Shown: positions 34,569 to 55,200 of the stretch, piece by piece
Layout: each line of letters begins with the position of its first letter
Position numbering within the stretch: the stretch's first letter is position 1
Assembly (NCBI GenBank): GCA_965249025.1
Contig: OZ252215.1
Location: forward strand, 1,471,783-1,535,782
Source: Dehalococcoidia bacterium
GTDB taxonomy: Bacteria; Chloroflexota; Dehalococcoidia; Lucifugimonadales; CAYTFF01
DNA: 64,000 nt
Reading direction: 5' to 3'
Notes under the pieces: generated by a model
Seen by the model: only the letters and a program-made list of their open reading frames with translations
What the model was told of the DNA's origin: nothing
Database searches by the model: none
Translations under genes and position numbers: made by a program

Positions 34569-37500
34569 CTACTCCAATGAGGGGAGGGATTTCACGATTT
34601 TTACTGTCTCTAAACTAATTACCTTGCCGATTAGACGCACGATGTACTCAGGGTCGTCCGAGCGGTTGGGGTCGTTGACAATGCCGCTCCGCTTATCCGT
34701 TTTTACCTGATACTGGTCAATTATCCACTCAAGGGCTGAACGGTTGCCCAGGCGGTACTCGAAGGCAGCGGCTGGGATGCCACCCAGAGTCAGGAAATCA
34801 TTGTAGACAAGCTGCGTCTTGTCTTTGGAGAGCTTCATCTTTTCCACTCGCCAGTTCAGCGGGACGTCCTTGTTCTCCAGCCACTGAAGAGGATATTCCG
34901 CCTGCTCCTCGTAGTCCGAGTGTAGCTCCGCCAACCTGGCTCCCGCTTGGGCGAATCTGCGGAAACCTGACGCAAAGGGTATGCGCGGTAGCTCCCTTTT
35001 CAAGTTGGCGGCATACTTCTCCCTGTATTGTGGATGGTGCAGCAGGCCATAGACGTAATGGAAGATGTCCCACTTGGAGACGCCGTCATCCTTGTAGTGG
35101 GTCCGAAACTCCTCCAGCGCCCAGTCTGTAATGTTCTCTCGCCGGTTTCTGCCGTCCTCACCGTAAGTGTAGAAGGGAAAGCATTGCGTGGCATCGATTG
35201 AGGTCAGCGCCACGTTAGGAATAAGACTCGCACAGAGACACCAGTAATTTGACCGTCCACCTAGACTGGGGGCACAAATCAGACGGTTTTCGTTTTCACT
35301 CCGGTTGGTAGGGAATATACGAGGGAGCTGATAAATATCCTCGTTGAATACACGCTCAAAATAATAGAATTGCACACAGAATGGACGATACAGCGCCTTA
35401 CGAATCCGAGTGTTGTCAAATTCTACTCCTTCATTGCGCAATAAGCTTCTCTTTGTATGCCTAATCCACTTTAGAACCTTTTCATTAATATCTAGAATCT
35501 CGTCAAGATTGCTTGGCTGTCCTTTGCGTCTCCATCTATTAAGTCCTTCACGGTAAGCCTCTACCATTTTCAGTGCAGTTGTTCGTAGTAACTTACTGTC
35601 AAAGCTGTATACGTACGAGTCATTATTGCTTTTGACTCCATTGCTGAACGAAGTAAAGATAGCTTGAACATTAGCCAACCTTTTGTTAGCCTTATCTCCC
35701 ATTAACAAGAGGACTCGAACTCGGGTCTCATGCCTTCGGTCAGCCAAGTATGCTTTGTGTCAGGAGTAATCTCTGTCCAGTCAATTCCGCCCAGAGAAGT
35801 CTTCTCGTCCAGGAAATCGTACTTTTCCTTCTTGCGCCAGAATTCGTCCAGACGGGCATAGTAAATTCTTGCCTGTCTGGGTTCATCGGTCTTCCGTTTG
35901 ATGAAGAGGTTAATGCTTACTCCAATCTGAATCCCGAATACATTGTGCGTTGTGCCTGATAGTTTTGGGTTCTTCCTTACATTCCCGCCCAGGTCCAGAA
36001 TGTAGATAGCGTCAAAATCATCTTCTAGATGCCTTCTTACTCCATCAAATGCTATCCCTTCGATAAAGCTGTTATTAGTTACAAAGGCTACAATCCCTTC
36101 ATCGTTTACTCTATCGGAAGCAAAACGGATTGCTTTTACGTATGGGTCACTTAATTGATTCAATAAGGTAGCGGTGGAGTCCCTGGAATAGGTCTTGGCA
36201 ACGTGTTTATCCATTTCTTTATACTTGCGGTTCTTGTTGTTGTCATTCTCATTTACCTGACCGGCGTTATAGGGTGGGTTCCCGATGACGACAAAGATTG
36301 GTGCTCTTTTCTGGCGTTCCACCCGCGCCGTGTTTTCCTCAGTGAACAGCGGGAGTTGCTTCCCTTCGGCCAGCTCGAATGTATCCACCAGGCAGATACC
36401 CTCAAAGGGCTGGTAAGAGCCTGTGAGTTCATAGTATTCGTGTTCAATATTCATGGAGGCGATGTAGTAGGGCAACAGCATGACCTCGTTGCAGTGAAGC
36501 TCGTTGGCGTACTTGTAGGGCAGTCTGGATTTCTGCATCTCCCGCATTACCCGCACCATGAAACTGCCTGTGCCCACAAAGGGGTCGATAGTATGAACGC
36601 CTTCATCCGAAAATGAGCGGCCAAATCCCTCGTGGAGGATCTCCTCCACCGATTTGACCATGAAGCTCACGATGGGCTGTGGCGTGTACACGATGCCGTG
36701 GGTGTCGGCCACCTTGACCGAGAAACCCTGGAAGAACTTCTCGTAGACAGTGTTCAAGAAGCTCTGCTTCTGGGTGAAGTCATCGATAGTGGCGGCGGTA
36801 GATTCAATGGCACCATAGAAGCGGTCGAGGGATTTCAGAAATTCGTGGCGACTGAAGGACTGCGAGGTCAAGGCCAGAATGACCTTCTCGATTTCGTGGG
36901 CGATAACGTTGCGTTCCACAAAGTCGGGGTTGTTGAACACCTTGCGGAAGATACGCTCCGTTAGCAGGTGCTGAATGAGCATCTCTTCTATGGCCTGAGT
37001 GGAGATGTTGGGGTTGATGGTCTGGCGGCAGAGATTTGAAAAATCTTCGAAGGCCTGAATGAATTGCTGATTGCTGGAACGCTCCTTTTCGATGAGTTGA
37101 ATCAGTCCTTCGGCCAATTCCGGGACCTTGAGTTTGAACTCCTCGACAGCTTGTCCAAACTGCTCATAGGCAGGCGGCTGATAAGCAAAGAAAGTCTTCA
37201 AAGCCTCTATGAGACGTTCCGGCTGGGCGATAGTTCCGTCGAAGACCTGTCTGGAGTCCTGCCAGATGACTATTCGATTGGGAGCCTGAAAGAGAATGTT
37301 GTCCTTAGGGTATCCGACAGCGAACTTCTTCTTGATTTCCTTGTCCAGATCGTCGCTGCTGTCTTTGGCCTCCCAGTAGCCATGAACCAGCTTGAAGCCG
37401 TCCACAACGGCGCCATCGACGCGGATGGGGTGGCCGTTGCGTTTGACGGAGTGTTGCTCAAGCAGCGTCCAAGCGAATTGGCGGGCGCAGTGACGCAGCA

Positions 37501-37657
37501 GGGCTGCAAACGCAGGGGAAACAGCGCCCTCATGAGACGTGTCAAGGGTGGCAAGATTGCTCAGGGTATCGTAGTAGTCTTTGACTGCCTTGTGGCTTGG
37601 TTTGAGATTCAGTGTGTCCCTAGGTTGTCTTTCCGACGCACCTTGAAGTGCGATTAG
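34569..37657 (-). pseudogene. type ISP / YeeA-like N6-adenine DNA methyltransferase with a Type_ISP C-terminal specificity domain, frameshifted and lacking a canonical start
   Basis: ORFs 35702-37405 (motif I DPFVGTGSF, motif IV VIGNPPYNAGQ) and 34569-35747 (ENITDWALEEFRTHY...IFHYVYGLLHHPQYREKYAANLKRELPRIP) overlap by 46 nt in different frames. The join reads EFESSC* versus LLMGDKANK. My hand translation shows the homologous N-terminus (LKPSHKAVKDYYDTLSNLATLDTSHEGAV...) continuing 84 codons upstream of GTG 37405 to a stop at 37658-37660, with no ATG/GTG/TTG among them. Confidence 0.75.
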
Positions 37658-37712
37658 CTATCGCAGTTTTATCCGATGGCGGCTGATGTGTCAAGGGTTG
37701 GGGTGGGAAGAA

Positions 37713-37755
37713 ACACCCCCTCTCTAACTCTCCCCCATAAAGGGGGCGAGAAGGG
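37713..37755 (+). repeat. hairpin repeat module CACCCCCTCTCT(A/G)ACTCTCCCCC-ATAA-AGGGGGCGAGAA
   Basis: The same module recurs at 39591-39625, 39937-39969, 46589-46607 (partial), 48519-48550 and 48868-48910. Confidence 0.75.
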
Positions 37756-37765
37756 CACACTACCC

Positions 37766-37903
37766 CAGATGCTTCGTCGGCGAGAGGCATTATAAAGCGG
37801 TTGGGTTTAACAGACTCCTCCTTCGGTCGCCGACGCTCCATAGCTTTAGCGACGGAGCGGGGGACGGAGTCCTCCCTTCGGCGGACAAAGTCCTCAGCAG
37901 GAC
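37766..37903 (+). repeat. structured interspersed repeat, copy A (long variant)
   Basis: CAGATGCTTCGTCGGCGAGAGGCAT...AACAGACTCCTCCTTCGG[extra hairpin CGCTCCATAGCTTTAGCGACGGAGCG]GGGGACGGAGTCC...GGACAAAGTCCTCAGCAGGAC aligns with copies B, C and D. Its 3' end overlaps the stop region of the HxlR gene. Confidence 0.8.
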
Positions 37904-38319
37904 CCGCCTGCGGCAGGCTGGGCGGGAGATTCCTCTACCTCAACCCAAGAGTCCGCCCATTTTTGAACCGCTTCAACAATCCCCTTTAGATCGGCTCCTT
38001 TGGGCGTCAAAGCATATTCCACGGCAACCGGGCGGTCCGTATGGACTTTGCGCTCAATGACCCCGACCTCTTCTAACTCCTTTAGACGTTCAGAGAGCAA
38101 GCGATCGCTTATGTCTCCTATGTAGGAGGCTATCTGGGCAAACCGACGAGGTCTGTCGACCAGTGCGCGCAGGATAAGTCCCGTCCACCTTTTGCCAAGG
38201 AGGTTTGTTGTCCACTTGTACCGGGGACACATATGCTCAAAGCTCATATCTTCATTCGCAGCCATAGACAGAATCAATACTAATACTAAATTAGCTGCTT
38301 GCCAAGAGTAATTCGGCAT
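37894..38319 (-). CDS. HxlR-family winged-helix transcriptional regulator
   Basis: CPRYKWTTNLLGKRWTGLILRAL...FAQIASYIGDISDRLLSERLKELEEVGVIERKV is the HxlR core. The start may be internal (MSFEHMCP). The last few codons lie inside repeat copy A. Confidence 0.8.
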   Translation of the reverse strand: MPNYSWQAANLVLVLILSMAANEDMSFEHMCPRYKWTTNLLGKRWTGLILRALVDRPRRFAQIASYIGDISDRLLSERLKELEEVGVIERKVHTDRPVAVEYALTPKGADLKGIVEAVQKWADSWVEVEESPAQPAAGGSC

Positions 38320-38402
38320 GTTATTCTATAATTACTAAAAGTAACGAGCTACCTATATATTAGCATATAGGGCTTCAATCCAATCACAATGAAGGAGAGA
38401 TA

Positions 38403-38819
38403 ATGCCAGACTGGAAAGAAATGAGCAAAGAGACCATTAAAGAATTTCGAGACAACGGAGGTAAGGTGGGTGGATTCTTTGAAGGCGCCCCCCTGCTGCT
38501 GATTACGACCAAGGGTGCCAAGACAGGTAACTCACATACGACGCCGGTGATGTACCTACCTGATGGAGATCGCCAGGTCATATTCGCCACCAAGGCAGGC
38601 GCGCAGGAGAATCCCGCCTGGTACCATAACCTCCTGGCTGAACCCACGGTGACAGTCGAAGTAAGGGAAGAAACATTCACAGCTAAAGCCGGAGTTGCCA
38701 ACCGTGAAGAGCGCGACCGGCTTTACGGCAAGCAGGCAAGCATATATCCGCAGTTTGCTGAGTATGAGACGAAGACAACCCGAAAGATACCTGTCGTTGT
38801 TCTGGAGAGAAAAAGCTAA
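38403..38819 (+). CDS. nitroreductase-family deazaflavin (F420H2)-dependent oxidoreductase (DUF385/Ddn-like)
   Basis: 138 aa. GAKTGNSHTTPVMYLPDGDRQVIFATKAGAQENPAWYHNLLAEPTVTVEV is the family core. It is divergent from the HxlR gene. Confidence 0.8.
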   Translation: MPDWKEMSKETIKEFRDNGGKVGGFFEGAPLLLITTKGAKTGNSHTTPVMYLPDGDRQVIFATKAGAQENPAWYHNLLAEPTVTVEVREETFTAKAGVANREERDRLYGKQASIYPQFAEYETKTTRKIPVVVLERKS

Positions 38820-39015
38820 ATTCCCGGCCTGGATCCCTTTCCAGACATTTGGAATCTTAGAATTACGGCCCTACCTCGAAGGCGTTGAGGATGACGGCGA
38901 GGGCGCTGTAGTGTCCGACGGTGACCTTCGTAGACCGCTGAAGTGCTCAGATGACAGCCCTCTCCCCAAAAGGCTAGAATAGACCTCAAATGCTGTTGCA
39001 AACTGAGGGTCTCGC

Positions 39016-39492
39016 TTGTCAGTAGATACGAAAACCATTGCTGAGTCGATCAAGAATCTCGCCCGTGCGATCAAATCCCTTCGCGCCGCTGAGGTAATCC
39101 GCTCCCGTTACCTGTTTGCGGAGCTGGGCGAGTGGTACGTAGAGCAACTCTATGAAGCTGAAAGAAGGCGGGACTCTGGACGTAAGGGGTCAGACCTACG
39201 GCTCCCTAACGGAGCTGTCGTGTTGGTCGAGACGAAGTCCTATGACCCAAAGAATCGCTGGAGCTTCCTGGAGTTCAACACGAACCTATTTGACCGGCTC
39301 ATCCTCGTGATTCTGACCGACGATCTGACTGTTCGCGACCTCTACGATGTTCCAATCACCGATTTCATCAGAGTGCTGAGAGGGGGACAGGAGGACATGC
39401 CTTCTTACTACTGGGACGATTTAACGCCGTGGCGCGTGGATGCCACGAAGTTTCCAGGCTACTCAGCGATTTCTGGGCTCATCGAAGGCTGA
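39016..39492 (+). CDS. hypothetical protein with a PD-(D/E)xK-like nuclease motif
   Basis: 158 aa with a TTG start. ELGEWYVEQLYEAE...KGSDLRLPNGAVVLVETKSY fits D-x(n)-E-x-K spacing. No neighbouring methyltransferase is intact. It is flanked by repeats. Confidence 0.45.
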   Translation: MSVDTKTIAESIKNLARAIKSLRAAEVIRSRYLFAELGEWYVEQLYEAERRRDSGRKGSDLRLPNGAVVLVETKSYDPKNRWSFLEFNTNLFDRLILVILTDDLTVRDLYDVPITDFIRVLRGGQEDMPSYYWDDLTPWRVDATKFPGYSAISGLIEG

Positions 39493-39673
39493 AGGCTGCC
39501 AGAGCGCTGGATGGCATCACACTTCCACCCCGATAGATCGAGGGCAGGCCCAGTATGACCCTTCGACATTGCTCAGGGCGAGCGGGAGACGCCCTCTCTC
39601 TGACTCTCCCTATCTAGGGGCGAGGATATCCGTTTCGCTCAAGGTGAGTGGTGGATTGGAGGGGCGATGCGAT

Positions 39674-39789
39674 AGATGCTTCGTCGGCGAGTGGCATTTT
39701 ACAGCTGCTGGATTTAACCGACTCCTCCTTCGGGGGACGGAGTCCCGCCTATGGCGGACAAAGTCCTCAGCATGACAACCCCAACCCCC
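39674..39789 (+). repeat. structured interspersed repeat, copy B (short variant)
   Basis: TAGATGCTTCGTCGGCGAGTGGCATTTT...AACCGACTCCTCCTTCGGGGGACGGAGTCCCGCCTATGGCGGACAAAGTCCTCAGCATGACAACCCCAACCCCC. Confidence 0.8.
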
Positions 39790-39863
39790 GCAGGTATCTC
39801 CATGGCAATGACAGGATGGGGAACTCCGTTCATGGGTTCGACACCGACAAACCGAGGACAGGT

Positions 39864-39896
39864 CCGCTCATGCTGAGCCTGTCGAAGTATAAGCGG
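39864..39896 (-). repeat. TTCGAC..GCTCAG hairpin repeat (inverted orientation)
   Basis: CCGCTCATGCTGAGCCTGTCGAAGTATAAGCGG is the reverse complement of the family seen at 52028-52058. Weaker copies lie at 30403-30425, 34374-34397, 39558-39586 and 51998-52022. Confidence 0.7.
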
Positions 39897-39995
39897 AGGG
39901 TTACCCTCTCCCAGAGAGACAGGGGATTTTCAGGCTCACCCCCTCTGTGACTCTCCCCTATCTATGGAGCAATCATGGGTAAACAGTTAAGTCCC

Positions 39996-40820
39996 CTAGA
40001 AGAGGTCGGTTTCGGTGGGGCCGCCGCCCCTCCCTGGACCGGCGCGCTGGAAGTGGTCTTTTCGGAGGACCTGTTCGGTTAGCTCCTGAGGGAAGGCGGT
40101 AAAAGGAGACGCCTGGGAGCGGTGCTGTTCGATAGCACGCATTCTGGTCTCGATATGGGCAGAGACATCGACGATGGTGGTGATCTCTTCGTCGGGCAGG
40201 CCCATGGTGTTGGGGTCTATGTCGACCATGTCGCTGTCCGGGTTGATCTCTTTCATGTATTCCATCCACTGCATCAGCATGCTCCGGGGAAAAGTGTGGT
40301 AATAGAGCCTGCTAGATGTCCAGGGCGGAACGGAATTAGGAGAGGAGAAGGAGGGGTCGCCTGCGGAGTGGAAGGCCTGAGTAGTCAACTCCGAAGCCCT
40401 GATGTGGTCGGGGTGTCCATAGCCGCCGTTCAGGTCCATGGTGATGACGACATGAGGGCGAAACGTCCGCATTATGTCAACGAGACGCTGGAGAACCTCC
40501 GGCTCAGGAGCATTGATGAAGGCGGCTGGGTTCTTGTTATCGTCGGTGCGAGCCATGCCCGAGTCGCGGTAGCCCAGGATGGCAAGGGATTGGACTCCAA
40601 GGACGTTCAGGGCGGCGCGAAGTTCGCCCTCTCGGACGGCGCCGAGGGTCTCGCGGGTGGCGTCGACGCCTGGGGCAATCTCACCCACCTCGCCTCGTGT
40701 AGCGCAGACGAGGGATATATCGACGCCCTGGCTGGCGTAGTGAGCAAGGGTACTGCCAGATCCGAAGGTCTCGTCGTCGGGATGGGCGAATACGGCTAGG
40801 AGGCGTTTGCTGGATGTCAT
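39996..40820 (-). CDS. PIG-L/LmbE-family N-acetylglucosaminyl deacetylase (MshB/Mca/BshB-like)
   Basis: LLAVFAHPDDETFGSG and GYGHPDHI are the zinc-site motifs. ATG 40820 (AGGAGA 9 nt upstream) is preferred over 40880. Confidence 0.8.
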   Translation of the reverse strand: MTSSKRLLAVFAHPDDETFGSGSTLAHYASQGVDISLVCATRGEVGEIAPGVDATRETLGAVREGELRAALNVLGVQSLAILGYRDSGMARTDDNKNPAAFINAPEPEVLQRLVDIMRTFRPHVVITMDLNGGYGHPDHIRASELTTQAFHSAGDPSFSSPNSVPPWTSSRLYYHTFPRSMLMQWMEYMKEINPDSDMVDIDPNTMGLPDEEITTIVDVSAHIETRMRAIEQHRSQASPFTAFPQELTEQVLRKDHFQRAGPGRGGGPTETDLF

Positions 40821-40911
40821 GTTGGGATGTCTCCTGGTTGAGGGTGTAGACATGTTACCGATGGTTGGCAACGGCGTCAATGGCTGTGGGATAGGATTAT
40901 GAGCTAGAGTA

Positions 40912-41535
40912 TCAGCTTACCAGGAAGGGGTTCCAGCGCTTTTCGTCGCCGATGGTGCTTTGAGGGCCGTGGCCTGGGAAGACCTGGGTATCGTCAGGGA
41001 GGACAACGAGTCTGGTCCTGATGTTATCAATGAGCAGGCGTCCGTCGCTTTTGGGGAAGTCGTAGCGGCCGATGCTGCCCTGGAAGAGGGTGTCGCCGGT
41101 GAAGAGAAATCCTGGGGTATAGAAGCAAAGGCTGCCTGGCGTGTGCCCGGCCGTGTCGATGACCTGTAGCTTGACATCGCCTATGCCCAACGTATCTCCG
41201 TGGCGGAGGTTGAAGTCGGGCCTTGGAGGCTGGCGGAAGTCGGGTATCATGGCCTGGCCCGGGCCTTCGGATTCCTCTAAAAGGTATTCGTCGTTCTGGT
41301 GGATGCCGTAGGACGCTCCTGTGGCCTCTTTGACGGCGGCGATGGCTCCGGTGTGGTCGAAGTGGCCGTGGGTGTTGACAATGTACCTGGCAGTGAGGCC
41401 AAGGGTATCCAACTCGGCAAGGATTCGATCGGCCTGGGCGCCGGGGTCGATGACGATGCACTCGCCGGCATCTTCTGAACCTACAATGTATGTATTCTCC
41501 TGAAGAGGCCCCACAACTATTACGCGAAGGATCAT
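40912..41535 (-). CDS. MBL-fold metallo-hydrolase (glyoxalase II-like)
   Basis: 207 aa. NTHGHFDHTG and GHTPGS are present, with a C-terminal GH. Confidence 0.85.
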   Translation of the reverse strand: MILRVIVVGPLQENTYIVGSEDAGECIVIDPGAQADRILAELDTLGLTARYIVNTHGHFDHTGAIAAVKEATGASYGIHQNDEYLLEESEGPGQAMIPDFRQPPRPDFNLRHGDTLGIGDVKLQVIDTAGHTPGSLCFYTPGFLFTGDTLFQGSIGRYDFPKSDGRLLIDNIRTRLVVLPDDTQVFPGHGPQSTIGDEKRWNPFLVS

Positions 41536-41728
41536 GCTCTGCTCCTGTTAGTTATCGACGACATTATAACTACTCTCGAGGCTCGTGGCGAATATGGGGG
41601 CGCCTAAAGAAGGATTGTCCGAGTCAAAGAGCTGTGATAGCTTATTGAACGGCGCTACACGGGAGAATAAGAATTTGCCAAGCTCTCCCAGTGCCGAGCA
41701 TCGTAGCGATGGGAATAGATGAATTGAA

Positions 41729-42283
41729 ATGAGACCACAGGCTATCGGAGGCAGGCGCAGGATGAGTGTAACGCTTTTTGTAATGGCAGGCCTAGTGTTG
41801 ATCCTTGGAATCTTGACGCTGGGCTTTCATGGATGGTCGGGGGTAAATAGCGGGCTTTCGCAGTCTTTCAAGATGCTGCAGGGCGTTGCGCCTCAGATCA
41901 TCCTGGGATTCATGGCGGCGGGGCTGATTCAGGTGGTTGTGCCGCCACAGGTCATCGCCCGGTTGATAGGAGAAGGCTCTGGCATACCAGGCGTATTGGT
42001 AGCGACGGTAGCTGGAGCGCTAACGCCTGCAGGGCCCTTCGTTTCTTTCCCGCTGGTGGTAGCGCTATATAAAAGCGGCGCAGGTGTGGGACCTCTGGTA
42101 GCGTATATTATCTCGTGGGGGATACTGCCCATCCACAGGATGTTGATCTGGGAGTTGCCGCTCTTGGGGCCGTCTTTTGCACTGCCTCGATACACCGTAA
42201 GCCTACTGCTGCCCATAGTGGCTGGAATCCTAGCGCCGTATGTGTTCGCCTTCTTCGGGCGAATGCTGCCCAATCTGAGGTAG
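41729..42283 (+). CDS. small permease-family membrane protein (DUF318/ArsP-like half-size)
   Basis: 184 aa and hydrophobic. GALTPAGPFVSFPLVVALYKSGAGVGPLVAYIISW resembles the predicted-permease family. Only half the usual length. Confidence 0.5.
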   Translation: MRPQAIGGRRRMSVTLFVMAGLVLILGILTLGFHGWSGVNSGLSQSFKMLQGVAPQIILGFMAAGLIQVVVPPQVIARLIGEGSGIPGVLVATVAGALTPAGPFVSFPLVVALYKSGAGVGPLVAYIISWGILPIHRMLIWELPLLGPSFALPRYTVSLLLPIVAGILAPYVFAFFGRMLPNLR

Positions 42284-42578
42284 CTCTGTGGACCACGCAC
42301 TGAAAAGCGTGGCATGGGGAATGCTGCCTCAGCAAGAAGGCGGCGACAGATTCCTCGTCGCCCCGATTTGTCGGGGCACCCCGGCCTTGCACAAAAAAGC
42401 AAAAATCTCAGGAAGGTGACGGAACCCTGGGTTTCCGTCCAGGGGTCTGGGGGTGTCCCCCAGATGCGAACCTGGGTGGAGAGGGTGGGATAATCGAGGT
42501 CTGTTGTTCCTAAAATTGGCAAACCAAGACTTCATGTGTAAAGCTAGGGCACCCATAAAGTATGAAAATGGAGTCGCC

Positions 42579-42695
42579 CAGATGCTTCGTCGGTGAAGGG
42601 ATGCTGGATGAGGAGGACTTCAACCGACTCCTCCTTCGGGGGACGGAGTCCCGCCCATGGCGGACAAAGTCCTCAGCATGACAACCCCCAACCTC
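42579..42695 (+). repeat. structured interspersed repeat, copy C (short variant)
   Basis: CAGATGCTTCGTCGGTGAAGGGATG...AACCGACTCCTCCTTCGGGGGACGGAGTCCCGCCCATGGCGGACAAAGTCCTCAGCATGACAACCCCCAACCTCC. The 5' flank GAAAATGGAGTCGCC (from 42564) is shared with copy D. Confidence 0.8.
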
Positions 42696-42854
42696 CACTG
42701 GCATTTTCGGGGCAATGACAGTAAATGGATATGGCTTTTTAGAAAGCGCTTTTGACTTTACACGATGGAGTTGTTACTTTTACGATTGTGTCAGTAAACC
42801 AATGTATTGAAAAGAGGTAGAAGGTTGACTTCCGATAAGTTGAAACAGGTGAAC

Positions 42855-44333
42855 ATGGATACGATCATGTCCCTCTGCAAGCGCAGGGGGTTCATATTTC
42901 AGAGCAGCGAGATCTATGGCGGGCTGGGGAGCACGTGGGACTACGGCCCCCTGGGCGTGGAGTTGAAGCGGAACGTGAAGGAGGCGTGGTGGAGGTCGAT
43001 GGTATGGGACAGGGACGATGTGGTGGGGCTGGACGCTGCGATACTGATGAACCCGCAGGTTTGGGTAGCCAGCGGCCACGCGGAGGGGTTCACGGACCCG
43101 CTGGTGGAGTGCAAGGCGTGTCAAAACCGCTTTAGGCCAGACAAGGTGATGGTACGTGAAGTGACCACCGAAGGCAAGGGCCACATTGGCTATGTGACCG
43201 GATATACTCAAGAAGAATTGCAAAAAAAGCGGAATGTTCTGTTGAAGGATATTCCACCTATGGATATTTTTGAAGTCTCACCTCCGAGGCCATTCCAGGA
43301 GTTCTTAAACGACACAAGCAAGATCCCTTGCCCTTTCTGTGAGGAAGTAGGTCAGTTTACAGAGCCACGGCAGTTCAACCTCATGTTCGAGACGCACGTT
43401 GGGCCTGTGGAGGACAGCGCCAGCCAGGTGTGGCTGCGGCCGGAGACGGCCCAGGGGATCTTCGTAAACTTCGAGAACGTGCAGACGACGACGCGGAAGA
43501 AACTGCCCTTCGGCATCGCCCAGATAGGCAAGGCCTTCCGAAACGAGATAACGGTGGGAAATTTCATCTTCCGCACTCGCGAGTTCGAGCAGATGGAGAT
43601 GGAGTTCTTCGTAAAGCCAGGGACGGACGACGAGTGGTACAAACGCTGGATAGAAGAGCGGTATCAGTGGTATCTGAGCCTGGGTATTCGCAAGGAGAAT
43701 CTGCGCATCCGTGAACACGACAAGGCGGAGCTGGCCCACTACGCCAAGGCGACGTCGGACATCGAGTACCGGTTTCCGTGGGGGTGGGACGAGCTAGAGG
43801 GGATCGCCAATCGCACGGACTTCGACTTGAGGGCCCACGCTGAACACAGCGGGAAGGACTTGAAATACTTCGACCAGGATGAGAACGGCCATTATTATCC
43901 CTACGTCATCGAGCCGTCGGGGGGCGTGGACAGGTCGGTGCTGGCCTTTCTGCTGGACGCCTACACAGAGGAGATGGCACCGACGGCAACGGAGGGCAAG
44001 GAGGACAAGCGGGTGGTGATGAGGCTGGACAGGTCGCTGGCGCCGGTGAAGGTGGCGGTGCTGCCGCTGAGTCGCAACGAGAGGCTGGTGCCCCTGGCGA
44101 GGAAGGTGTACGAACTGACCCGTGGCCACGGCTGGATGGTGCAGTACGACGACACCCAGAGCATCGGGCGTCGGTATCGCAGGCAGGACGAGGCCGGGGC
44201 ACCACTGTGCGTCACGGTGGATTTCGACTCGCTGGAGGACAAGGCGGTCACCATACGAGACCGGGACACGATGGCCCAGGACCGTGTGCCGATTGACGCG
44301 TTAGTAGAAGAATTGAGGGAGCGGCTGGGGTGA
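42855..44333 (+). CDS. glyQS: glycine--tRNA ligase (alpha2 type)
   Basis: [59 protein letters not shown] and the C-terminal anticodon-binding domain are present. ATG 42855 is preferred over the upstream ATG 42807. Confidence 0.9.
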
Positions 44334-44647
44334 CGTTAGACTTTGGTCTGAAGCAAATCCAAGAGTCGGTAAGGCAACGAAAAGTTCTGTTCAGTAATCA
44401 CGTAAACAATGAGATGCTGGACGAAGATATATCACCCAAGGAAATACGAGAGGCGATTCTTAGTGGTACAATTATCGAGGACTATCCTAAGCACCGTCGG
44501 GGTTCTTGTTGCCTAATTTATGGCAGAACAAAGGAAGGACGCAATCTTCACGTAGTTGTAACGAAAGGTAAAGCTCCCTTAATAGTCATTACTGCATATG
44601 AACCAATGCTCCCGTATTGGACATCACCAACAAAAAGAGGCCGATGA
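44330..44647 (+). CDS. DUF4258-domain toxin-like protein
   Basis: 105 aa. The GTG start overlaps the glyQS TGA (GTGA). [20 protein letters not shown]...[23 protein letters not shown] is the DUF4258 pattern. GC is visibly lower than in glyQS. Confidence 0.75.
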
Positions 44648-44865
44648 CAATGAAATGTGATCTATGTGGTGGAGAATACAAAGAGAAGAGGATTTCCCAA
44701 AGTTATAACCGCTTTAGCAAAACTGTGGTGGTAGAGAACATACCAGCTCTGGTATGTGACCGATGTGGAGATATCCTTTTATCAGAAGAAACTGTTGAGG
44801 CCATTCAAGACGCGCTGAAAAAGGAACCTCAGGGTTCTGTCCCCTTGTATCGGCTTGTTAGCTAA
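44644..44865 (+). CDS. YgiT-type zinc-finger (MqsA N-terminal-like) antitoxin-like protein
   Basis: CDLCGG...(x)...ALVCDRCGD forms a zinc ribbon. ATG 44644 makes an ATGA overlap with the toxin stop. ORF track start is 44617. Confidence 0.7.
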
Positions 44866-44900
44866 ACGGCGCCACGCTTCTCAGTTCTCACCATCCTGGA

Positions 44901-45035
44901 GCACCACTGTGTGTCACGGTGGACTTCGACTCGCTGGAGGACAAGGCAGTCACTATACGAGATCGGGACACGATGGTCCAGGACCGTATGCCGATTGACG
45001 CATTGGTGGAGGAGTTGGGGGAGCGGTTGGGGTAG
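44901..45035 (+). pseudogene. displaced duplicate of the glyQS 3' end (last 44 codons plus stop)
   Basis: The 135 bp align base-for-base with 44199-44333, with about 16 mismatches by eye and no gaps. It translates in frame to [45 protein letters not shown]. Confidence 0.85.
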
Positions 45036-45189
45036 TAAGGGGTTAGACCTCCTTTCTTGACCCATCTGAGTTAAAGAGAGCAAGTCAATATCACGCCTTT
45101 TGGCCTATCTTTTTATGCAAGGCCAGTCTAAACTGTCCAGCGTAATCTAGTGGCCGATCTAACCATGAAACGCTTGACTAGAGGCAGCA

Positions 45190-46458
45190 TTGACGTCTAT
45201 CTCCTATCGCTGGGTAATTGCGTCCCTGTCGTTTTTAGCGTTGTTCGCTTCTATGGGGACGAGAGCTTCCTTTGGAGCTTACGTTCTCTCGTGGGAGGAG
45301 AGCTTTGGGGCCAGCCGTGGCGAGGTAAGCTTCATCTCTTCTTTGAGCTTCATCGTTTTCGGCTTGGGTATGGTGGTGGGAGGCCAGCTGGCAGACCGAT
45401 TTGGCACGCGGAAAGTAGTAGTAACCAGCTTTGTTCTATCTGGCATCAGCTTGTTGGCCTCATCACTGGCAACTTCCCTCTGGCATATGATCATCCTCTA
45501 CGGCGTCATTGTTTCTCTGGGGTCCTCGGGCACCTCTCCTGTAACGTTGTCTCCTGGGGTGATGAAGTGGTTCAGCGATCGGCGAGGCCTGGCATTAGGA
45601 TTCAGCAACAGTGGTATAGCAGTCGGCCAGATGGCGCTGGTGCCGTTGAGCATATATCTAATCAGAGCATTCGACTGGCAAACCTCCCTTCAAATCTTCG
45701 GCTTGGCCTATCTAGCGCTACTAGCGCCTGTCTTCTGGTTCCTGTATCGCGACAACCTACCTGCTGCTAAATCGCCGGACGATGAAAAGAATGGTGTAAC
45801 GGTTGAACCCGTCCAGGAATCAGCGTCCAATAGCGCAACTCAGCTTGATGCCAGTCCAAAACCCAGAGAAAGTCTGGTAGCTGTCATGTGGCTTCTTGTA
45901 ACCTGGATGATTATAGCCCCGTATTTTGTCTGCGGTTTCACAGATATCGGACTATTCAACACACACTTCATTCCACTATCGGAAGGACGCGGATTCTCGT
46001 CCGAAATCATAGTTTTTGCCATTACCCTTAGCAGCATAGCCACTCTAGGAGGGGCAGTGGTCACGGGCTACCTAACGGACACCATGCGCCTGACAACCCT
46101 GCTGAGCCTGACGTATGCATTGCGGGGCGGTAGCCTGGTGCTGCTTTTGTTCGCGAATAGTCCTAGCCTGCTGCTGATCTTCGGCATGCTTCATGGGATA
46201 ACGACGGTGGCTACCATCGCTCCCACGACTACACTGTGCGCAAGGGTTTACGGATACCACAGAGTGGGCAGCGTTTTTGGGGTGATGTCACTGTTTCATC
46301 AGTTCGGGGCAGCCGCTGGCTCCTTTATTCCGGGTCTGCTCTTTGATCTGACGGCAAGCTACAATGTGGCCTTGATTCTGTCTGCCTCTATGTTAGCGAT
46401 GGGTTCGGTTATCACCTGGATGGTTGTGGAAGGGAGAAGGCATACCACCACACCATAA
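45190..46458 (+). CDS. MFS transporter
   Basis: 422 aa with a TTG start after GAGG. There are 12 predicted hydrophobic segments, and GGQLADRFGTRKV is the loop 2-3 motif. Confidence 0.8.
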   Translation: MTSISYRWVIASLSFLALFASMGTRASFGAYVLSWEESFGASRGEVSFISSLSFIVFGLGMVVGGQLADRFGTRKVVVTSFVLSGISLLASSLATSLWHMIILYGVIVSLGSSGTSPVTLSPGVMKWFSDRRGLALGFSNSGIAVGQMALVPLSIYLIRAFDWQTSLQIFGLAYLALLAPVFWFLYRDNLPAAKSPDDEKNGVTVEPVQESASNSATQLDASPKPRESLVAVMWLLVTWMIIAPYFVCGFTDIGLFNTHFIPLSEGRGFSSEIIVFAITLSSIATLGGAVVTGYLTDTMRLTTLLSLTYALRGGSLVLLLFANSPSLLLIFGMLHGITTVATIAPTTTLCARVYGYHRVGSVFGVMSLFHQFGAAAGSFIPGLLFDLTASYNVALILSASMLAMGSVITWMVVEGRRHTTTP

Positions 46459-46649
46459 GAGCTGTGGCACGAAGGGGGTTGGCCCAGGGTGAGTGGTGGT
46501 TGGGTAAACGGTACGATAGATTCCTCGTCTCTCTACAAGTCAGGGTTCTCGGAATGATAGGGCAAATGGGCTAGGGGTGAGCGGAATAGCACCCCCTCTC
46601 TGACTCTGGTCTGTTGGACACAGGGAACAGGGTTGTCTGAGGTACGGCC

Positions 46650-46775
46650 ATGTGGACAGAGACTGCCACCTTGGAAGAGTACAGGCTGATCGTGGATACC
46701 AACTTGACCAGTGTATTCCTCTTGACCCAGCGCGTAGGAAAAGAGATGCTAGCTCGGGGGTGGGGACGTTCCAAC
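46650..46775 (+). pseudogene. short-chain dehydrogenase/reductase fragment
   Basis: WTETATLEEYRLIVDTNLTSVFLLTQRVGKEMLARGWGR matches the mid-section of SDR enzymes (after NNAG, before the catalytic Ser). No Rossmann N-terminus or YxxxK follows. Repeats truncate it upstream. Confidence 0.55.
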
Positions 46776-46877
46776 AGACCCTTCCCCGTCTCCACCTCTC
46801 CTAGGATGGAGTATAGTATTGCCATCCGTGGTGGGCCTGTCGAGCCGCGCAGCCAGAAGAACCGCTAGGAACCACTA

Positions 46878-47081
46878 ATGTCTGACATGACCGACAAAGC
46901 AGCAGAAGAGAATCGCAGGGCGTGGAACTCATTCCGTCGCCAACTGGACAAGGGCAGGGTAAACATACGCCCAGATTCAGCAGCCGCCATCTTGGCAGGC
47001 AGGCGGTTCCTTTATCCCGAGAACTTGCCTGAATTAATGAATAAAGCTAATACTACCAGTGGCTATGGAGCAGCACATTAA
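46878..47081 (+). CDS. hypothetical 67-aa ORF, possibly another gene fragment
   Basis: The ORF track is the only support. The NRRAWNSF segment is reminiscent of methyltransferase N-termini. Confidence 0.2.
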   Translation: MSDMTDKAAEENRRAWNSFRRQLDKGRVNIRPDSAAAILAGRRFLYPENLPELMNKANTTSGYGAAH

Positions 47082-47093
47082 GCATCTCCAAGA

Positions 47094-48389
47094 ATGAGGC
47101 TCAAGCCCAGCGCCATATATCGCGGATGGCTGGTGATAGCCGCTGCTTTTCTATCCACCGCCTTTGTGGTCGGGGGCACTCAGTGGTCCTTTGGTGTCTT
47201 CGTTCAGCCTCTGGAAGCGGAGTTTGGTTGGACAAGAACCCAGATTAATGTTGCTCTTTCCTTATCCGCCATTTCCGGCCTCATTGCGCCCATAGCGGGC
47301 CGCATTATGGACCGCATCGGCGTGCGGCCCATAATGATGGCCTCCCTAAGTATGTTGGTGGCCTCGTTTCTGTTAAGACCCTTCATGACCGAGCTATGGC
47401 ACTGGTATGCCCTGAACGCCCTGATGTTTGCAGGCTTTGCGGGAGCAACTTCCCTGGTTGCAGGTAAGTTGGTGGCACTGTGGTTTCACAGGTCCACAGG
47501 CCGGGTACTCGGATTAACCTCTATCGGCAATAACTTCGGCGCCTTCACTATGCCGCTGCTGGCGGGATTGCTGGTTGGTGTAGCCAGTTGGGAGTGGACT
47601 TATACCGTCTTCGGGATTATCGGTGTTTCAGTATTGACAATAGTTTTCCTAGTAGTCAGAGACAGTCCCGAACACATAGCGAGAGCGCAGGCCAGGTCAT
47701 CGCATGTTGCAAATGAGCCTCCATGGGACAGGAGAGACTTTGACCGGCATGCAGGCGGGTTGAGAGGCCTTACGGTACAGCAGGCCCTCAGGTCACGCGA
47801 CTTCTATGCCCTTGCCCTGGGATTCCTGGCGGGCATGTTTACCTTCAGCACCGTAGTAACTCAACTCGTGCCTCACCTGGAAAACGAAGGGTTTTCTGCA
47901 GGGCGAGCCGTCCTAATTCTGAGCATGATTCCGATTTTCGGTATACTCGGCAAGCTGATTATCGGCTACCTGTCCGATAGGCTACCCGTCCGATACATTC
48001 TTGTCCTCTGTCTGGCTGTCCACTCTCTGTCGATGACAATACTCGTGATGTCGCCCGCATCGTCCTTGATCTGGCTCTTTGTTCCTGTGTATGGCTTATC
48101 TCAAGCTGGGATAGGCATGCTAGCGCCCCTGATGATCCAGAGGTCCTTCGGTCTCAAATCTTACGGGAGCATACTGGGCTTGATACACATGGTGCAGATG
48201 GCCGCCTTCCTGATAGGGCCAGTCATGGCCGGAGCGATATTCGACGCTACGGAAAGTTACAGGCCAACCTTTGTTGTATTGGGCGCAATATTCATGATAG
48301 GGGCGTTAGCGGTGACTCAGGTGCGGGCTCCAAGCGAGACGCCGCCAATGGGACAGGGAATTAGGTCACGTCCGCCGGATGAGGTGTGA
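47094..48389 (+). CDS. MFS transporter (oxalate/formate antiporter-like)
   Basis: 431 aa, polytopic, with GRIMDRIGVRP and a 12-TM layout. Confidence 0.8.
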   Translation: MRLKPSAIYRGWLVIAAAFLSTAFVVGGTQWSFGVFVQPLEAEFGWTRTQINVALSLSAISGLIAPIAGRIMDRIGVRPIMMASLSMLVASFLLRPFMTELWHWYALNALMFAGFAGATSLVAGKLVALWFHRSTGRVLGLTSIGNNFGAFTMPLLAGLLVGVASWEWTYTVFGIIGVSVLTIVFLVVRDSPEHIARAQARSSHVANEPPWDRRDFDRHAGGLRGLTVQQALRSRDFYALALGFLAGMFTFSTVVTQLVPHLENEGFSAGRAVLILSMIPIFGILGKLIIGYLSDRLPVRYILVLCLAVHSLSMTILVMSPASSLIWLFVPVYGLSQAGIGMLAPLMIQRSFGLKSYGSILGLIHMVQMAAFLIGPVMAGAIFDATESYRPTFVVLGAIFMIGALAVTQVRAPSETPPMGQGIRSRPPDEV

Positions 48390-48518
48390 TGGGAAAGACC
48401 CTTCAAAAAGAGGCTTTACCTGTAGGAGGCTAGAATTTCCTTTATGTTCAACCTGCTCACTTTATCTGACGTTCCCTAACATAGAGGCAGAGTGTGATTT
48501 GTACCCCGTGTCCAACAG

Positions 48519-48598
48519 CCCCTCCCCCATGAATGGGGCGAGAATAAGGGGCCTCCCCAGATTCTTCTACCAACGAGGTGGGGTTCTCGGGATCATAC
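48519..48598 (+). repeat. composite hairpin repeat (CCCCTCCCCC..GGGGCGAGAA plus AGATTCTTC..GGGTTCTCGG module)
   Basis: It parallels 48868-48959. Related AGATTCCTCGTC... pieces occur at 42348-42385 and 46519-46560. Confidence 0.65.
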
Positions 48599-48626
48599 AT
48601 GCCCTTGGCAGGGCACCGAAGTGGAT

Positions 48627-48823
48627 GAAAATGGAGTCGCCCAGATGCTTCGTCGGCGAGAGGCATTTTGCAGCGGTTGGGTTTAACCGACTCCTCCTTC
48701 GGTCGCACGTCGCCATAGCTTTAGCGACGGAGCGGGGACGGAGTCCCGCCTATGGCGGCTTCGCCTGCGGCAAGCCTATGGCGACCGAAGGACGCAGTCC
48801 TCAGCATGGCACCCCCCCAACCC
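48627..48823 (+). repeat. structured interspersed repeat, copy D (longest variant, two extra hairpin inserts)
   Basis: GAAAATGGAGTCGCCCAGATGCTTCGTCGGCGAGAGGCATTTT...AACCGACTCCTCCTTCGG[TCGCACGTCGCCATAGCTTTAGCGACGGAGCG]GGGACGGAGTCCCGCCTATGGCGG[CTTCGCCTGCGGCAAGCCTATGGCGACCGAAGGACGC]AGTCCTCAGCATGGCACCCCCCCAACCC. Confidence 0.8.
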
Positions 48824-48867
48824 ACGACTCCTCGAAATGACAGGGTGGGCCCAGTATGAGCAGGATA

Positions 48868-48959
48868 GCACCCCCTCTCTGACTCTCCCCCATTAAAGGG
48901 GGTGAGAACAAGGGGCCTCCCCAGATTCTTCGACCGACGAGTTGGGAGAAGAATGACAG
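48868..48959 (+). repeat. composite hairpin repeat (CACCCCCTCTCTGACTCTCCCCC-ATTA-AAGGGGGTGAGAA plus AGATTCTTC...GAGAAGAATGACAG)
   Basis: Two consecutive inverted repeats can be read directly. Together with the other repeats it fills the MFS-hppA intergenic space. Confidence 0.75.
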
Positions 48960-48973
48960 AAGGGGTGGGGCGG

Positions 48974-51022
48974 TTATAGGAAGAGGGGAGCGAAGACCAG
49001 GGCGACTATTGACATCAGCTTCAGGAGGATGTTCAGGGACGGCCCAGAGGTGTCCTTGAAGGGGTCGCCGACGGTATCGCCAACGACGGCAGCCTTGTGG
49101 GCATCGGAGCCCTTGCCGCCGTAGTTCCCCAACTCGATATATTTCTTAGCGTTGTCCCAGGAGCCTCCGGCATTGGCCATTGTGATTGCCAGCAGAAAGC
49201 CCGCGGCAATAGCGCCTATCAGCAAGCCGCCCAGTGCCTGAGGCCCAAGAATAAATCCCACAATCAAGGGAGCGACGATTGCCAAAATCCCTGGAAGAAC
49301 CATCTCTCTAATGGCTCCCTTGGCGCTTATGTCCACGGCTCGGGTGTAGTCGGGTTTGGCGGTACCCTCCATGAGGCCCTTTATCTCTCTGAACTGTCGT
49401 CTCACCTCTTCCACCATGTTATAGGCTGCTCGCCCGACGGCCTGCATGGTAAGGGCCGAAAACAGGAATGGCATCAGCGCCCCTATGAAGAGGCCCAGTA
49501 GCACATCCGTAGTCTGGAGGTTAAACACGCTGATCCCCACTGCCTGGGAGTAGGCGGCCATCAGGGCAAGGGAGGTAAGCACAGCAGACCCTATAGCGAA
49601 GCCTTTGCCAGTGGCGGCGGTTGTATTACCTAGAGAGTCCAGAGCGTCGGTGCGCTCTCGCACCTTGGGGTCCAAGTGGGCCTGCTCGGCGATGCCGCCA
49701 GCGTTGTCGGCTACGGGGCCGTAGGCGTCGGTGGCTAGGGTAATTCCAAGGGTAGACAGCATCCCCACAGCAGCCAATGCGACGCCGTAAACACCAGCCA
49801 GCCAGCTAGCTAGCCATATACCAACCACAACAGCGACAAGGGGTATCAAGGTGCTCAGCATACCAAGACTAAACCCTCCAATGATAACCGTGCCAGCACC
49901 CGTCTGGGCCTGTTTGGACAGCCACTTGGTAGGCCTGGATTCGTAGGAGGTGAAATACTCCGTAGCTGTGCCTATGGTCTGGCCAACCACAAGTCCCACC
50001 ACGACGACCCAGAAGAGCTTGAAGTCCAACCCCAGGGCCGCTATGGCTAGTCCTGAACCTAGAAGGACCAGACCGCTAGCGGAGAAGATCCCGATGCGAA
50101 GCGCCCATAGCAAGCGCCCCATGGTGGCCTCCTCACCGCTACGGACTAAAAAGGTGCCCAATATGGAAGAGAATATGCCAATGCCAGCAATGAGCATAGG
50201 TAGGAGGAAGAGGCCGTGGTTGAAATTGGCCGTGGAATCGCTGATGTCGCCCAGAGCAAAGAAGCCCGCGCCAACGGCGGCCAGGGCCAGAGCGGCAATA
50301 ATGGAACCGACATAGGACTCGAAGAGGTCGGCTCCCATACCTGCTACATCGCCGACGTTGTCGCCCACGTTATCGGCGATAGTGGCGGGATTGCGAGGAT
50401 CGTCCTCGGGGATGCCCTTCTCGACCTTACCTACTATGTCTGCGCCGACGTCGGCTGCCTTGGTGAAGATGCCTCCGCCTACGCGGGCGAACAGTGCTAT
50501 GGACGAAGCACCGAAGCCGAAGCCAGCCACGATGTTGGGATCTTTGAATATCCACCAGAGTATCGCTATTCCAAGGATACCGATGCCAACCACGGTTATG
50601 CCCATGACGGAGCCACTCTTAAAAGCCACCCTCAAGGCGCGATTCAGGCCGTGCATTGCACCGGCAACGGTTCTGGTGTTGGCCCTAATGGCGATGCTCA
50701 TGCCGATAAATCCGGCCAGCGCAGAACCGATAGCGCCGGCCAGGTAGGATATGGCCGTCGACGGCACCGAGCGGCTGGTTCCTGCCTTGCCGGTGACATC
50801 GAAATCGACTAACAGCGCAAGAATGATAAACACCGCGACCACAAAGAAGGCAAGGAACCTGTATTCTCGGCTCAGGAAGGCGATAGCCCCCTCTTGGATG
50901 GCCTTGCCAATTTCCTTGATAGCCTCGTTGCCTTGGTCTTGTCGCAGTATGTTGATGACGAGGCCCAATGCGAAGAGCATGGCAACGCCCCCTGCGACGA
51001 TGGAGATGTAGATAGGCGTCAT
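48974..51022 (-). CDS. hppA: membrane-bound proton/sodium-translocating pyrophosphatase
   Basis: [40 protein letters not shown] and [22 protein letters not shown] are present. ATG 51022 (GGAGGT 9 nt upstream) is preferred over 51082. Confidence 0.9.
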
Positions 51023-54133: not shown

Positions 54134-54670
54134 CTATCCCGCATGCGTCCCATCGGCGTCGTAGACGTACACCTTATCGTCGATGATGTCCAACACGTAG
54201 AAGTAAGCTCCATCCCAGGCTATGCCAAAGGGGTAGGTGTTGCCGGTGGCGAGGTCGAAGTCGCGGTCTGACTGGTAGTTCCCATCGGCGTCGTAGACGT
54301 ACACCTTATCGAACAAGTTGTCCGTCACATAGAAGTAAGCTCCATTCCAGGCTATGCCCCAGGGGTAGGTGTTGCCGGTGGCGAGGTCGAAGTCGCGGTC
54401 TGACTGGTAGTTCCCATCGGCGTCGTAGACGTACACCTTATCGTCGACGACGTCCACCACGTAGAAGTAAGCTCCATCCCAGGCTATGCCAAAGGGGTAG
54501 GTGTTGCCGGTGGCGAGGTCGAAGTCGCGAGCGGCCCTTCGCCACGTCCCACTGACCTTGGTCCAAGAATGGGCTGCCTTCCATGTCCCCGCCACCTTCA
54601 CCTTGGCGGCCGCCGTCTGCCATGCCCCCGCTGCCTTGACCTTGATCGGCATCGCTAGTACTCCAGCCAC
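54134..54670 (-). CDS. tail-fibre-associated protein with three NHL/beta-propeller-like 44-aa repeats
   Basis: 178 aa. The N-terminus has KVKAAGAWQTAAAKVKVAGTWKAAHSW repeats. Then come 3 copies of RDFDLATGNTYP(F/W)GIAWxGAYFYVxDxxxDKVYVYDADGNYQSD. Confidence 0.6.
   Translation of the reverse strand: MAGVLAMPIKVKAAGAWQTAAAKVKVAGTWKAAHSWTKVSGTWRRAARDFDLATGNTYPFGIAWDGAYFYVVDVVDDKVYVYDADGNYQSDRDFDLATGNTYPWGIAWNGAYFYVTDNLFDKVYVYDADGNYQSDRDFDLATGNTYPFGIAWDGAYFYVLDIIDDKVYVYDADGTHAG
54149..54529 (-). repeat. 3 x 132-bp near-identical tandem repeat within the fibre-associated gene
   Basis: Units start at 54149, 54281 and 54413. The flanks are identical and differences cluster in one patch of about 18 nt per unit. 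Confidence 0.9.
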
Positions 54671-55200
54671 ACGTCGCCGTCGCCACCGTCCGAGCTGGTG
54701 GGGGCCGAGTCGCTCACCGTAACCCGCCTATACCCCAACGAGGCCAGGACAGCAGGTGTGATCACCCCGGTGGCATCGGTCCCGTCCCCTGCATCCGTGG
54801 CTAGCCTGACAACCCCGCGCTCCGTGGCGGAGGCATTGGGGGGCGACGTATTCAGTGGCTTCCAATGGGACTCGCCGCTGTCGGTAACCGGATCGACGTT
54901 GGTGGAGTCCTGGACGCTTACGTACAGCAGGGCATCGCCGCCCGTTACCAGCGCCGGATGCTCGTATGAGATCGAGGAGTCCCACTCAAGCCCTGCGCCG
55001 TGGACGTTCACCTCGACTCCCAGGGCGGTCACTTCCCGGTGAAGCTCGTTGAAGTGCTCCCGCTTGGGCAGCGACCCGCCGGGCTGGGAGTGGCTGATGT
55101 CCCAGCCAATAGAGCGGTCTATCCCACCGTCCTCCGGGTCCTCAACGTCCCCTGTGGCTGCCCACTTACTGATTTTTAGTGCGTCCGGGTCTCTTGCCAT
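54655..55200 (-). CDS. phage tail fibre protein
   Basis: 181 aa. LPKREHFNELHREVTAL, WDSSISYEHPALVTGGDALLYVS and ERGVVRLATDAGDGTDATGVITPAVL are motifs common in short tail fibres. Confidence 0.6.
   Translation of the reverse strand: MARDPDALKISKWAATGDVEDPEDGGIDRSIGWDISHSQPGGSLPKREHFNELHREVTALGVEVNVHGAGLEWDSSISYEHPALVTGGDALLYVSVQDSTNVDPVTDSGESHWKPLNTSPPNASATERGVVRLATDAGDGTDATGVITPAVLASLGYRRVTVSDSAPTSSDGGDGDVWLEY

Follow-up and report, generated by a model that had tools for sequence, protein, structure and literature searches.

The 64-kb window analysed here (contig OZ252215.1 of a Dehalococcoidia bacterium), whose relatives by protein comparison (GlyRS) are Chloroflexi / Dehalococcoidia metagenome-assembled genomes, carries four copies, A, B, C and D, of an interspersed repeat built of hairpins, all of them on the + strand and all within 11 kb. 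Copy A lies between the remnant of a Type ISP restriction-modification gene and an HxlR gene, copy B between an unknown open reading frame (ORF) and a PIG-L deacetylase gene, copy C between an ArsP fragment and the GlyRS gene, and copy D between the genes for an MFS transporter and an H+-PPase. This four-copy repeat had been reported in a first-pass annotation of the same DNA, and it is confirmed at positions close to those first proposed. Indeed, (i) the motifs GACAAAGTCCTCAGCATGAC and AGATGCTTCGTCGGCGAG, searched with up to three mismatches, each match precisely copies A-D, for chance expectations of 0.01 and 0.06, respectively, and (ii) with two covariance models, copies A-D obtain 114-141 bits, the best remaining match in the 64 kb reaching 16 bits at most. 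The covariance-model search suggested with the first-pass annotation has thereby been run on the window, and it recovered these four copies and nothing else above 16 bits. The census of copies covers the 64-kb window, of which the other 53 kb contain none.

In its minimal form, represented by copies B and C (119 nt), the element consists, from 5' to 3', of a 5' box, (CCC)AGATGCTTCGTCGG, a 28-nt stretch, the motif AACCGAC, the hairpins P3 (GACUCCUCCU / GGGGA-C-GGAGUC) and P4 (CCGCC-YAU-GGCGG), the small hairpin P5 (GGAC-NNN-GUCC), the motif UCAGCAUGAC and a C-rich tail, which the core of copy A lacks. The three shared parts recognised at first are all present as described, the third of them being now read as P4 followed by P5. 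The hairpin loops vary among copies (UAU, CAU, UUC; AAA, GCA). Copies A and D are longer than B and C because whole hairpins have been inserted, an origin of the length variation that had been foreseen and is borne out. In brief, module Y (34 nt in A, 37826-37859; 32 nt in D, 48702-48733; 25 nt identical, with the segment CCATAGCTTTAGCGACGGAG the same in both) is inserted in the apical loop of P3, the GACTCC/GGAGTC hairpin, and module X (33 nt, 48759-48791) lies between P4 and P5 of copy D. Module X occurs a second time 3' of the copy A core (37905-37918), so its placement differs between copies. Copies B, C and D run further in the 3' direction, through a variable stretch of 13-30 nt, to a common AATGACAG (39807-39814 in B, 42714-42721 in C, 48836-48843 in D), and about 45 nt upstream of the core are common to C and D. 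Copy A is not merely shorter, its core being followed by module X and then by a AGATTCCTCTAC unit.

A search of Joint Genome Institute (JGI) metagenome contigs with the 5' pattern of the element returned a single true homolog, E, located at positions 6563-6681 of an 8-kb groundwater contig of Chloroflexota (L254), where its neighbours are a ThiS-like gene on one side and mfd on the other. Its score is 78 bits with one covariance model (R1) and 122 bits with the other (R2), the alignment of R2 itself including E. The molybdopterin oxidoreductase encoded on this contig is closest to four paralogs on the source chromosome, and since the identity is only 53-62%, the organism that carries E is related, not close. 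A CCCCCATnAAAGGGGG hairpin precedes E, as it does copy A. Downstream of E there is a run of further hairpins (L254 6690-6800: GTCCCGATTCATCGGGAT, CCCTGCCTGCCCCGACAGGTCGGGACAGGG, CCTTCCTAGCTAGGAAGG), the GTCCCGATTCATCGGGAT hairpin resembling the CCCCGATTTGTCGGGG hairpin of a short unit of the window at 42360. A scan of 93 kb of sequence from relatives, other contigs of the metagenome of E among them, yielded no copy beyond E. The two-block 5' pattern had 0 matches in 185,579 species-representative genomes, the 3' pattern had 0 matches in the JGI metagenome contigs, blastn of the copies against plasmids and phages gave none, and 14-mers yielded chance matches only, among the matches listed, in viral contigs. 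The P3-hairpin pattern matched once in the species-representative genomes, inside an ABC permease gene, and this match was rejected as chance. The recommended Rfam search was also run: no family matches the copies, with no match at the gathering score on the whole 64-kb window and none overlapping any copy at E<=10. Furthermore, the reverse-strand pseudo-ORFs that had been expected to be mis-annotated as hypothetical proteins do exist in the copies. A six-frame concatenated peptide query had 0 matches among 5.8 billion predicted proteins; the pseudo-ORFs are therefore not annotated in public collections, and the expected mis-annotation was not found there.

Conservation is unevenly spread over the element. 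The 18-nt 5' box and the 61-position three-hairpin core are 85-98% identical in any pair of the five copies, E included. The 28-nt stretch, delimited by GTCGG and AACCGAC, has an identical length in all five copies, and its identity is near random (24-52%) in comparisons of C or E with the other copies; B and C, for instance, are 98% identical in their cores versus 32% in their 28-nt stretches. Judging from these alignments, either the core would be under selection with the 28-nt stretch free, or the 28-nt stretch would be exchanged as a module. A near-invariant hairpin core set against a free segment of fixed length, in two organisms, implies that the core is recognised by something. The partner could be a transposase, a nucleoid protein or a protein that binds RNA, and only by its identification would the finding gain in interest.

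The spacers that hold the element are convergent, tandem or, in the case of E, divergent. The spacers upstream of the GlyRS gene and between the MFS and H+-PPase genes were compared with those of two syntenic relatives (L001 and L002). The element is not present in the LactB-GlyRS-MFS-PPase segment of a relative with a 72% identical GlyRS (5.7 kb, with short spacers), nor upstream of the GlyRS gene in a relative with a 79% identical GlyRS. In the window, copy C is located upstream of the conserved promoter-like region of the GlyRS gene (TTGACTTT...TACTTTTAC, 42750-42790), outside the leader. Because the spacers of syntenic relatives are devoid of the element, the comparison shows the copies, as far as synteny can tell, to be insertions into intergenic spacers and not conserved cis-regulators, that is, not leaders or trailers of neighbouring genes. 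The description of an interspersed modular family, as opposed to random duplication, is upheld by this distribution and by the unrelated gene context of E. One of these insertions reaches into a coding sequence. Indeed, the last ~13 residues and the stop codon of the HxlR ORF (37894-38319, - strand), past the Pfam domain, are supplied by module X and the AGATTCCTCTAC unit, whereas the overlap with HxlR had been attributed to copy A itself. Copy A had also been described as abutting a truncated methyltransferase gene, which is not the case: this gene starts at 37405, ~360 nt away, with another repeat in between.

The long copies are part of a larger mosaic (Table 1). Shorter units carry the same 5' box as the long copies, AGATKCYTC. 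The box AGATKCYTCKWC occurs nine times in the 37.7-49.0 kb stretch, every time on the + strand, and five of these occurrences are short hairpin units (AGATTCTTCGACCGACGAGTTGGGAGAAGAATGACAG, for example); the sole further exact match in the window, at 18005, is inside a coding sequence. A second repeat family (CCCCTCTCTRACTCT...CCCCCATnAAAGGGGG), with the consensus (TGAGCRGRATAG)CACCCCCTCTCTRACTCTCCCCCATnAAAGGGGGYGAGAA...GGGGCCTCCCC, is interleaved with the long copies; it counts five members, on the + strand only and confined to the same stretch. In the cluster at 48524-48959, the order is a second-family half, a short unit, copy D, a second-family repeat and a short unit, and similar clusters are found at 37.7, 39.6 and 46.5 kb. 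The MFS-PPase spacer (48390-48974) is nearly all a head-to-tail chain of these pieces. The left flank ends in CCC for four of the long copies (A, C, D and E) as well as for two short units, and in GAT or GAC for B (GAT) and two other short units.

Table 1. Long copies, short units and second-family repeats of the mosaic (positions in the window, except those of E, which are on contig L254)
Feature	Position	Strand	Score	Composition or remark
Second family, directly upstream of A	37695..37760	+		GGGTTGGGGTGGG...CACCCCCTCTCTAACTCTCCCCCATAAAGGGGGCGAGAAGGGCAC
Copy A core	37764..37903	+	114.9 bits	5' box, 28-nt stretch, P3 with module Y, degraded P4, P5, CAGCAGGAC
Module X (CGCCTGCGGCAGGC), then short AGATTCCTCTAC unit	37905..37960	+		AGATTCCTCTAC unit starts at 37927
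Second family, upstream of B	39590..39622	+		Further copy at 39937-39969
Copy B	39671..39814	+	141 bits	Minimal 119-nt core (39671-39789), variable 3' stretch, terminal GCAATGACAG
Short AGAT-box unit CAGATTCCTCGTCGCCCCGATTTGTCGGGG	42347..42385	+		Adjoins ArsP gene fragment
Copy C	42545..42721	+	116 bits	5' extension AGGGCACC..ATGAAAATGGAGTCGCCC, 119-nt core (42577-42695), variable 3' stretch, GCAATGACAG
Short AGAT-box unit AGATTCCTCGTC...GGAATGATAG, then truncated second-family repeat	46517..46607	+		Adjoins short-chain dehydrogenase (SDR) gene fragment
Second-family 3' half, then short AGAT-box unit AGATTCTTCTACCAAC...GGGATCATACATG	48524..48600	+
Copy D	48608..48843	+	114.8 bits	5' extension, core (48640-48823), modules Y and X, variable stretch, AAATGACAG
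Full second-family repeat, then short hairpin unit AGATTCTTCGACCGACGAGTTGGGAGAAGAATGACAG	48846..48959	+
28-nt stretch	A 37781-37808; B 39688-39715; C 42594-42621; D 48657-48684; E 6580-6607

Three gene fragments, of the Type ISP, ArsP and SDR genes, are found in the same 15 kb. What remains of the Type ISP gene (34569-37405) is the coupler, the methyltransferase and the C-terminal specificity domain, divided between two overlapping frames. It lacks the nuclease/helicase half, and its break adjoins the repeats upstream of copy A. The ArsP permease fragment (41729-42283) covers profile positions 16-135 of 294, and both this fragment and the SDR fragment (46650-46868) are situated beside a short AGAT-box unit. 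Given this adjacency, the repeats may mark breakpoints of deletions or rearrangements. Other features of the window are as follows. The 3' end of the GlyRS gene is duplicated directly over 136 nt (44196-44331 and 44898-45033, 89% identical), with a DUF4258 toxin-like gene (44330-44647) and an ORF for an MqsA/YokU-like antitoxin (44617-44865) enclosed between the two stretches; no DUF4258/MqsA-like cassette is present between the GlyRS and MFS genes in the syntenic relative L001. A gene pair for a NurA nuclease and a HerA (DUF87) helicase (30494-33947) lies just upstream of the restriction-modification remnant. A coding tandem repeat of 3 x 132 nt (54148-54529, 90% matches), within a 178-aa ORF (54134-54670) beside phage-tail genes, encodes three 44-residue repeats (DFDLATGNTYPFGIAWDGAYFYV..DDKVYVYDADGNYQSDR). 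Finally, a phage-tail / contractile-injection-like cluster occupies positions 54655-63733 on the - strand, encodes DUF2612, DUF3383, baseplate hub gp41-like, Dit-like and tape-measure (PhageMin_Tail) proteins, and is probably a prophage or tailocin remnant.

The explanation preferred here, to which a probability of roughly 60% is given, is that the repeats constitute a new, lineage-restricted family of non-coding mosaic intergenic repeats, composed of self-contained hairpin modules and of the BIME, NIME and BOX kind. The family, which looks like selfish DNA, belongs to no described family. The 5' box and the hairpins would act as cis sites for an enzyme that works in trans and is encoded at another place in the genome, most plausibly a HUH transposase (Y1, IS200/IS605- or RAYT-like) that recognises hairpins or single-stranded DNA, and such mobilisation, together with local recombination, could have assembled the mosaics. 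A HUH-type enzyme encoded elsewhere is proposed tentatively, as a possibility on the unlikely side, because terminal inverted repeats and consistent target duplications are lacking, hairpins have entered the loops of other hairpins, the units are co-oriented head-to-tail and the stems are conserved. Effects on neighbouring genes would be by-products, namely the new C-terminus of HxlR and possibly hairpins in read-through transcripts. Several points weigh against this explanation. No transposase, integrase or reverse transcriptase was found among the window ORFs of at least 200 aa scanned with Pfam, and mobility is what we infer from the arrangement of the repeats. The clustering of four copies in 11 kb could reflect local duplication and not transposition, and the co-orientation amounts to only ~5 independent clusters (p ~0.06). 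Moreover, a core conserved in two organisms around a free 28-nt stretch of constant length also fits a functional RNA or a protein-binding site. If the preferred explanation is correct, a Chloroflexota lineage that has been little studied would thereby have its first described family of mosaic intergenic repeats. The finding is also of use for annotation, as the repeats create spurious ORFs in several frames, have rewritten the 3' end of the HxlR gene and mark a rearrangement-prone segment with gene remnants.

The first-pass annotation had suggested a structured RNA or a MITE-like element. A multi-copy family of non-coding RNA genes (small RNAs or scaffold RNAs), whose hairpin core would bind a protein or a ligand and whose 28-nt and/or 3' stretch would be copy-specific, is a rather unlikely alternative to the mosaic repeat family. 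Its transcript would run on the + strand from near CCCAGAUGC to beyond AAUGACAG. What keeps a functional RNA among the candidates is the conservation of the core, and likewise of the 5' box, in two organisms, together with a 28-nt stretch that keeps its length and not its sequence. Variation is gathered in the hairpin loops, where the extra hairpins also enter, P1 (the 5' hairpin) and P3 of the window copies contain U.G pairs compatible with the + strand only, module X has one U-A/C-G exchange between A and D, and a predicted sigma-70-like site of copy D is positioned to start transcription at the element. The structure tests, which were based on five sequences (A-E), with low power and too few to exclude an RNA function, give it no positive support. 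The covariation check that had been suggested found compensatory changes in 0/32 pairs of the model proposed here, and RNAalifold gave 0/31; the paired cells (86%) equal those of the shuffled control. Stems P3, P4 and P5 are invariant among the window copies and are therefore uninformative on structure either way. In E, P1 is broken at several positions, no long-range helix is formed, and the one altered pair of P3 reads C.A on the + strand but G.U on the - strand, cancelling the G-U argument for a + strand RNA initially drawn from the 5' hairpin. Folding z-scores against shuffles are weak (A -2.1, B -1.6, C -1.7, D -2.1, E +0.55), and those of the reverse strands are similar. The promoter-like site is restricted to copy D, with no promoters for A, B and C and no terminators after any of copies A-D, and the element is neither matched in Rfam nor conserved at orthologous loci. 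A more specific version, in which the scaffold would present the 28-nt (perhaps the 3') segment as a copy-specific guide for a protein encoded elsewhere, is very improbable: no target, complementary or identical, of the variable stretches exists in the window, and phage genomes gave chance-level matches only. Such guides would be dispersed and orphan, with a logic otherwise like that of omega, bridge or CRISPR-type guide RNAs. Other candidates were rejected. The long-range helix P2 (GGRUUU/AAGUCC) has one-sided changes only in the window copies, shifts register in C and is unformed in E. Hammerhead and other small ribozymes have no Rfam match, and the motifs differ among copies. An integron attC site (GTTGGGT / GTTTAAC motifs) is contradicted by GlyRS and the LactB-GlyRS-MFS-PPase genes being core genes and not cassettes, with no Pfam match to an integrase among the ORFs scanned.

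Among the readings based on DNA, immobile remnants of local duplication or rearrangement in a decaying, recombination-prone segment, with modules produced by slippage or partial tandem duplication, are an unlikely source of the repeats. The co-orientation of all repeats and their confinement to 11 kb would agree with such an origin, as would the 136-nt GlyRS 3'-end duplication and the three gene fragments of the region, and module X of D repeats 10 nt of P4 (GCCTATGGCG), as in a partial tandem duplication. However, the flanking genes are unrelated, with no duplicated coding sequence around the copies, E is found in another organism and another context with the same neighbouring hairpin repeat, and the disparity between the cores and the 28-nt stretches of B and C is not expected from duplication and drift. 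A classical MITE (a miniature transposable element with inverted repeats), that is, an internally deleted DDE-type insertion sequence moved via terminal inverted repeats and leaving target-site duplications, would account for the small size, the several intergenic copies, the hairpin potential and the insertion relative to relatives. It is nonetheless quite improbable, and the MITE-like nature envisaged at first does not hold in the strict sense: an inverted-repeat search of positions 37400-49100 found no terminal inverted repeats flanking any copy, there is no complementarity between the 5' box AGATGCTTCG and the 3' end AATGACAG, and direct repeats at the boundaries, inspected by eye, are not consistent (a possible GTAAA pair around C, nothing consistent for B and D, the ends being imprecise). 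Furthermore, conservation peaks in the internal hairpins and not solely at the termini, and no related insertion sequence was found among the Pfam-scanned ORFs of the window. A gene for a small protein is hardly credible. A 39-codon ORF is predicted in copy C (MKMESPRCFVGE...RTKSSA), B and E likewise have this frame open up to the TGA in CAGCATGA, and the length of the 28-nt stretch is constant. Against a coding role, the frame is broken in A and D by the inserts of 34 nt and 32 nt, and no homologous protein exists among the 5.8 billion searched; in addition, there is no Pfam match, B and E have no nearby in-frame start, and the core differences between E and B are, by eye, 2 synonymous and 3 non-synonymous.

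The mosaic repeat family preferred here resembles several known systems. As in the BIMEs of E. coli and relatives, non-coding intergenic mosaics are formed from a few hairpin modules in varied combinations, terminal inverted repeats and consistent target duplications are lacking, units can sit within other palindromes, as reported for GTAG-23 of Thermomicrobium roseum and others (PMC3733652), and a trans-acting HUH tyrosine transposase is presumed (REP-RAYT). REP units are single imperfect palindromes of 20-40 nt with an unpaired GTAG or CGTC tag, mostly arranged as inverted (head-to-head) dimers (PMC3733652). In contrast, the conserved unit described here is a 119-nt block of three or four hairpins with a distinct 5' box, CGTC lies inside the P1 loop and there is no terminal tag, all long copies, the nine AGAT-box units and the five second-family units are on the + strand, head-to-tail, and no RAYT gene is present among the Pfam-scanned ORFs of the window. 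NIMEs, in which RS units are flanked by dRS3, likewise have repeat families interleaved in intergenic mosaics in rearrangement-prone regions, and interleaved families are cited for Neisseria CGTC-1/dRS3 in PMC3733652. There is, however, no sequence similarity, and the 20-bp inverted dRS3 repeats that delimit NIME units are missing here.

With the PATEs of IS200/IS605 and the omega-RNAs of TnpB/IscB, the family shares subterminal hairpins, a strand-specific orientation, the lack of terminal inverted repeats and of consistent duplications, and a conserved scaffold followed by a variable 3' stretch. It differs from them in that no tnpA, tnpB or iscB is found among the Pfam-scanned ORFs of the window, that no conserved target tetranucleotide emerges from the left flank (CCC in four of the five long copies, GAT in B), that the variable stretches have no detectable targets and that no Rfam family matches the copies. 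Rfam includes IS605-orfB and HEARO-type families. The BOX elements found in Streptococcus pneumoniae, unlike the present family, end in inverted repeats of the MITE type and have TA duplications; they are unrelated to it in sequence and phylum. They are organised as boxA-boxB(n)-boxC, are hairpin-rich and intergenic, and have conserved end modules between which a variable internal number sets the length, and the repeats described here are built likewise.

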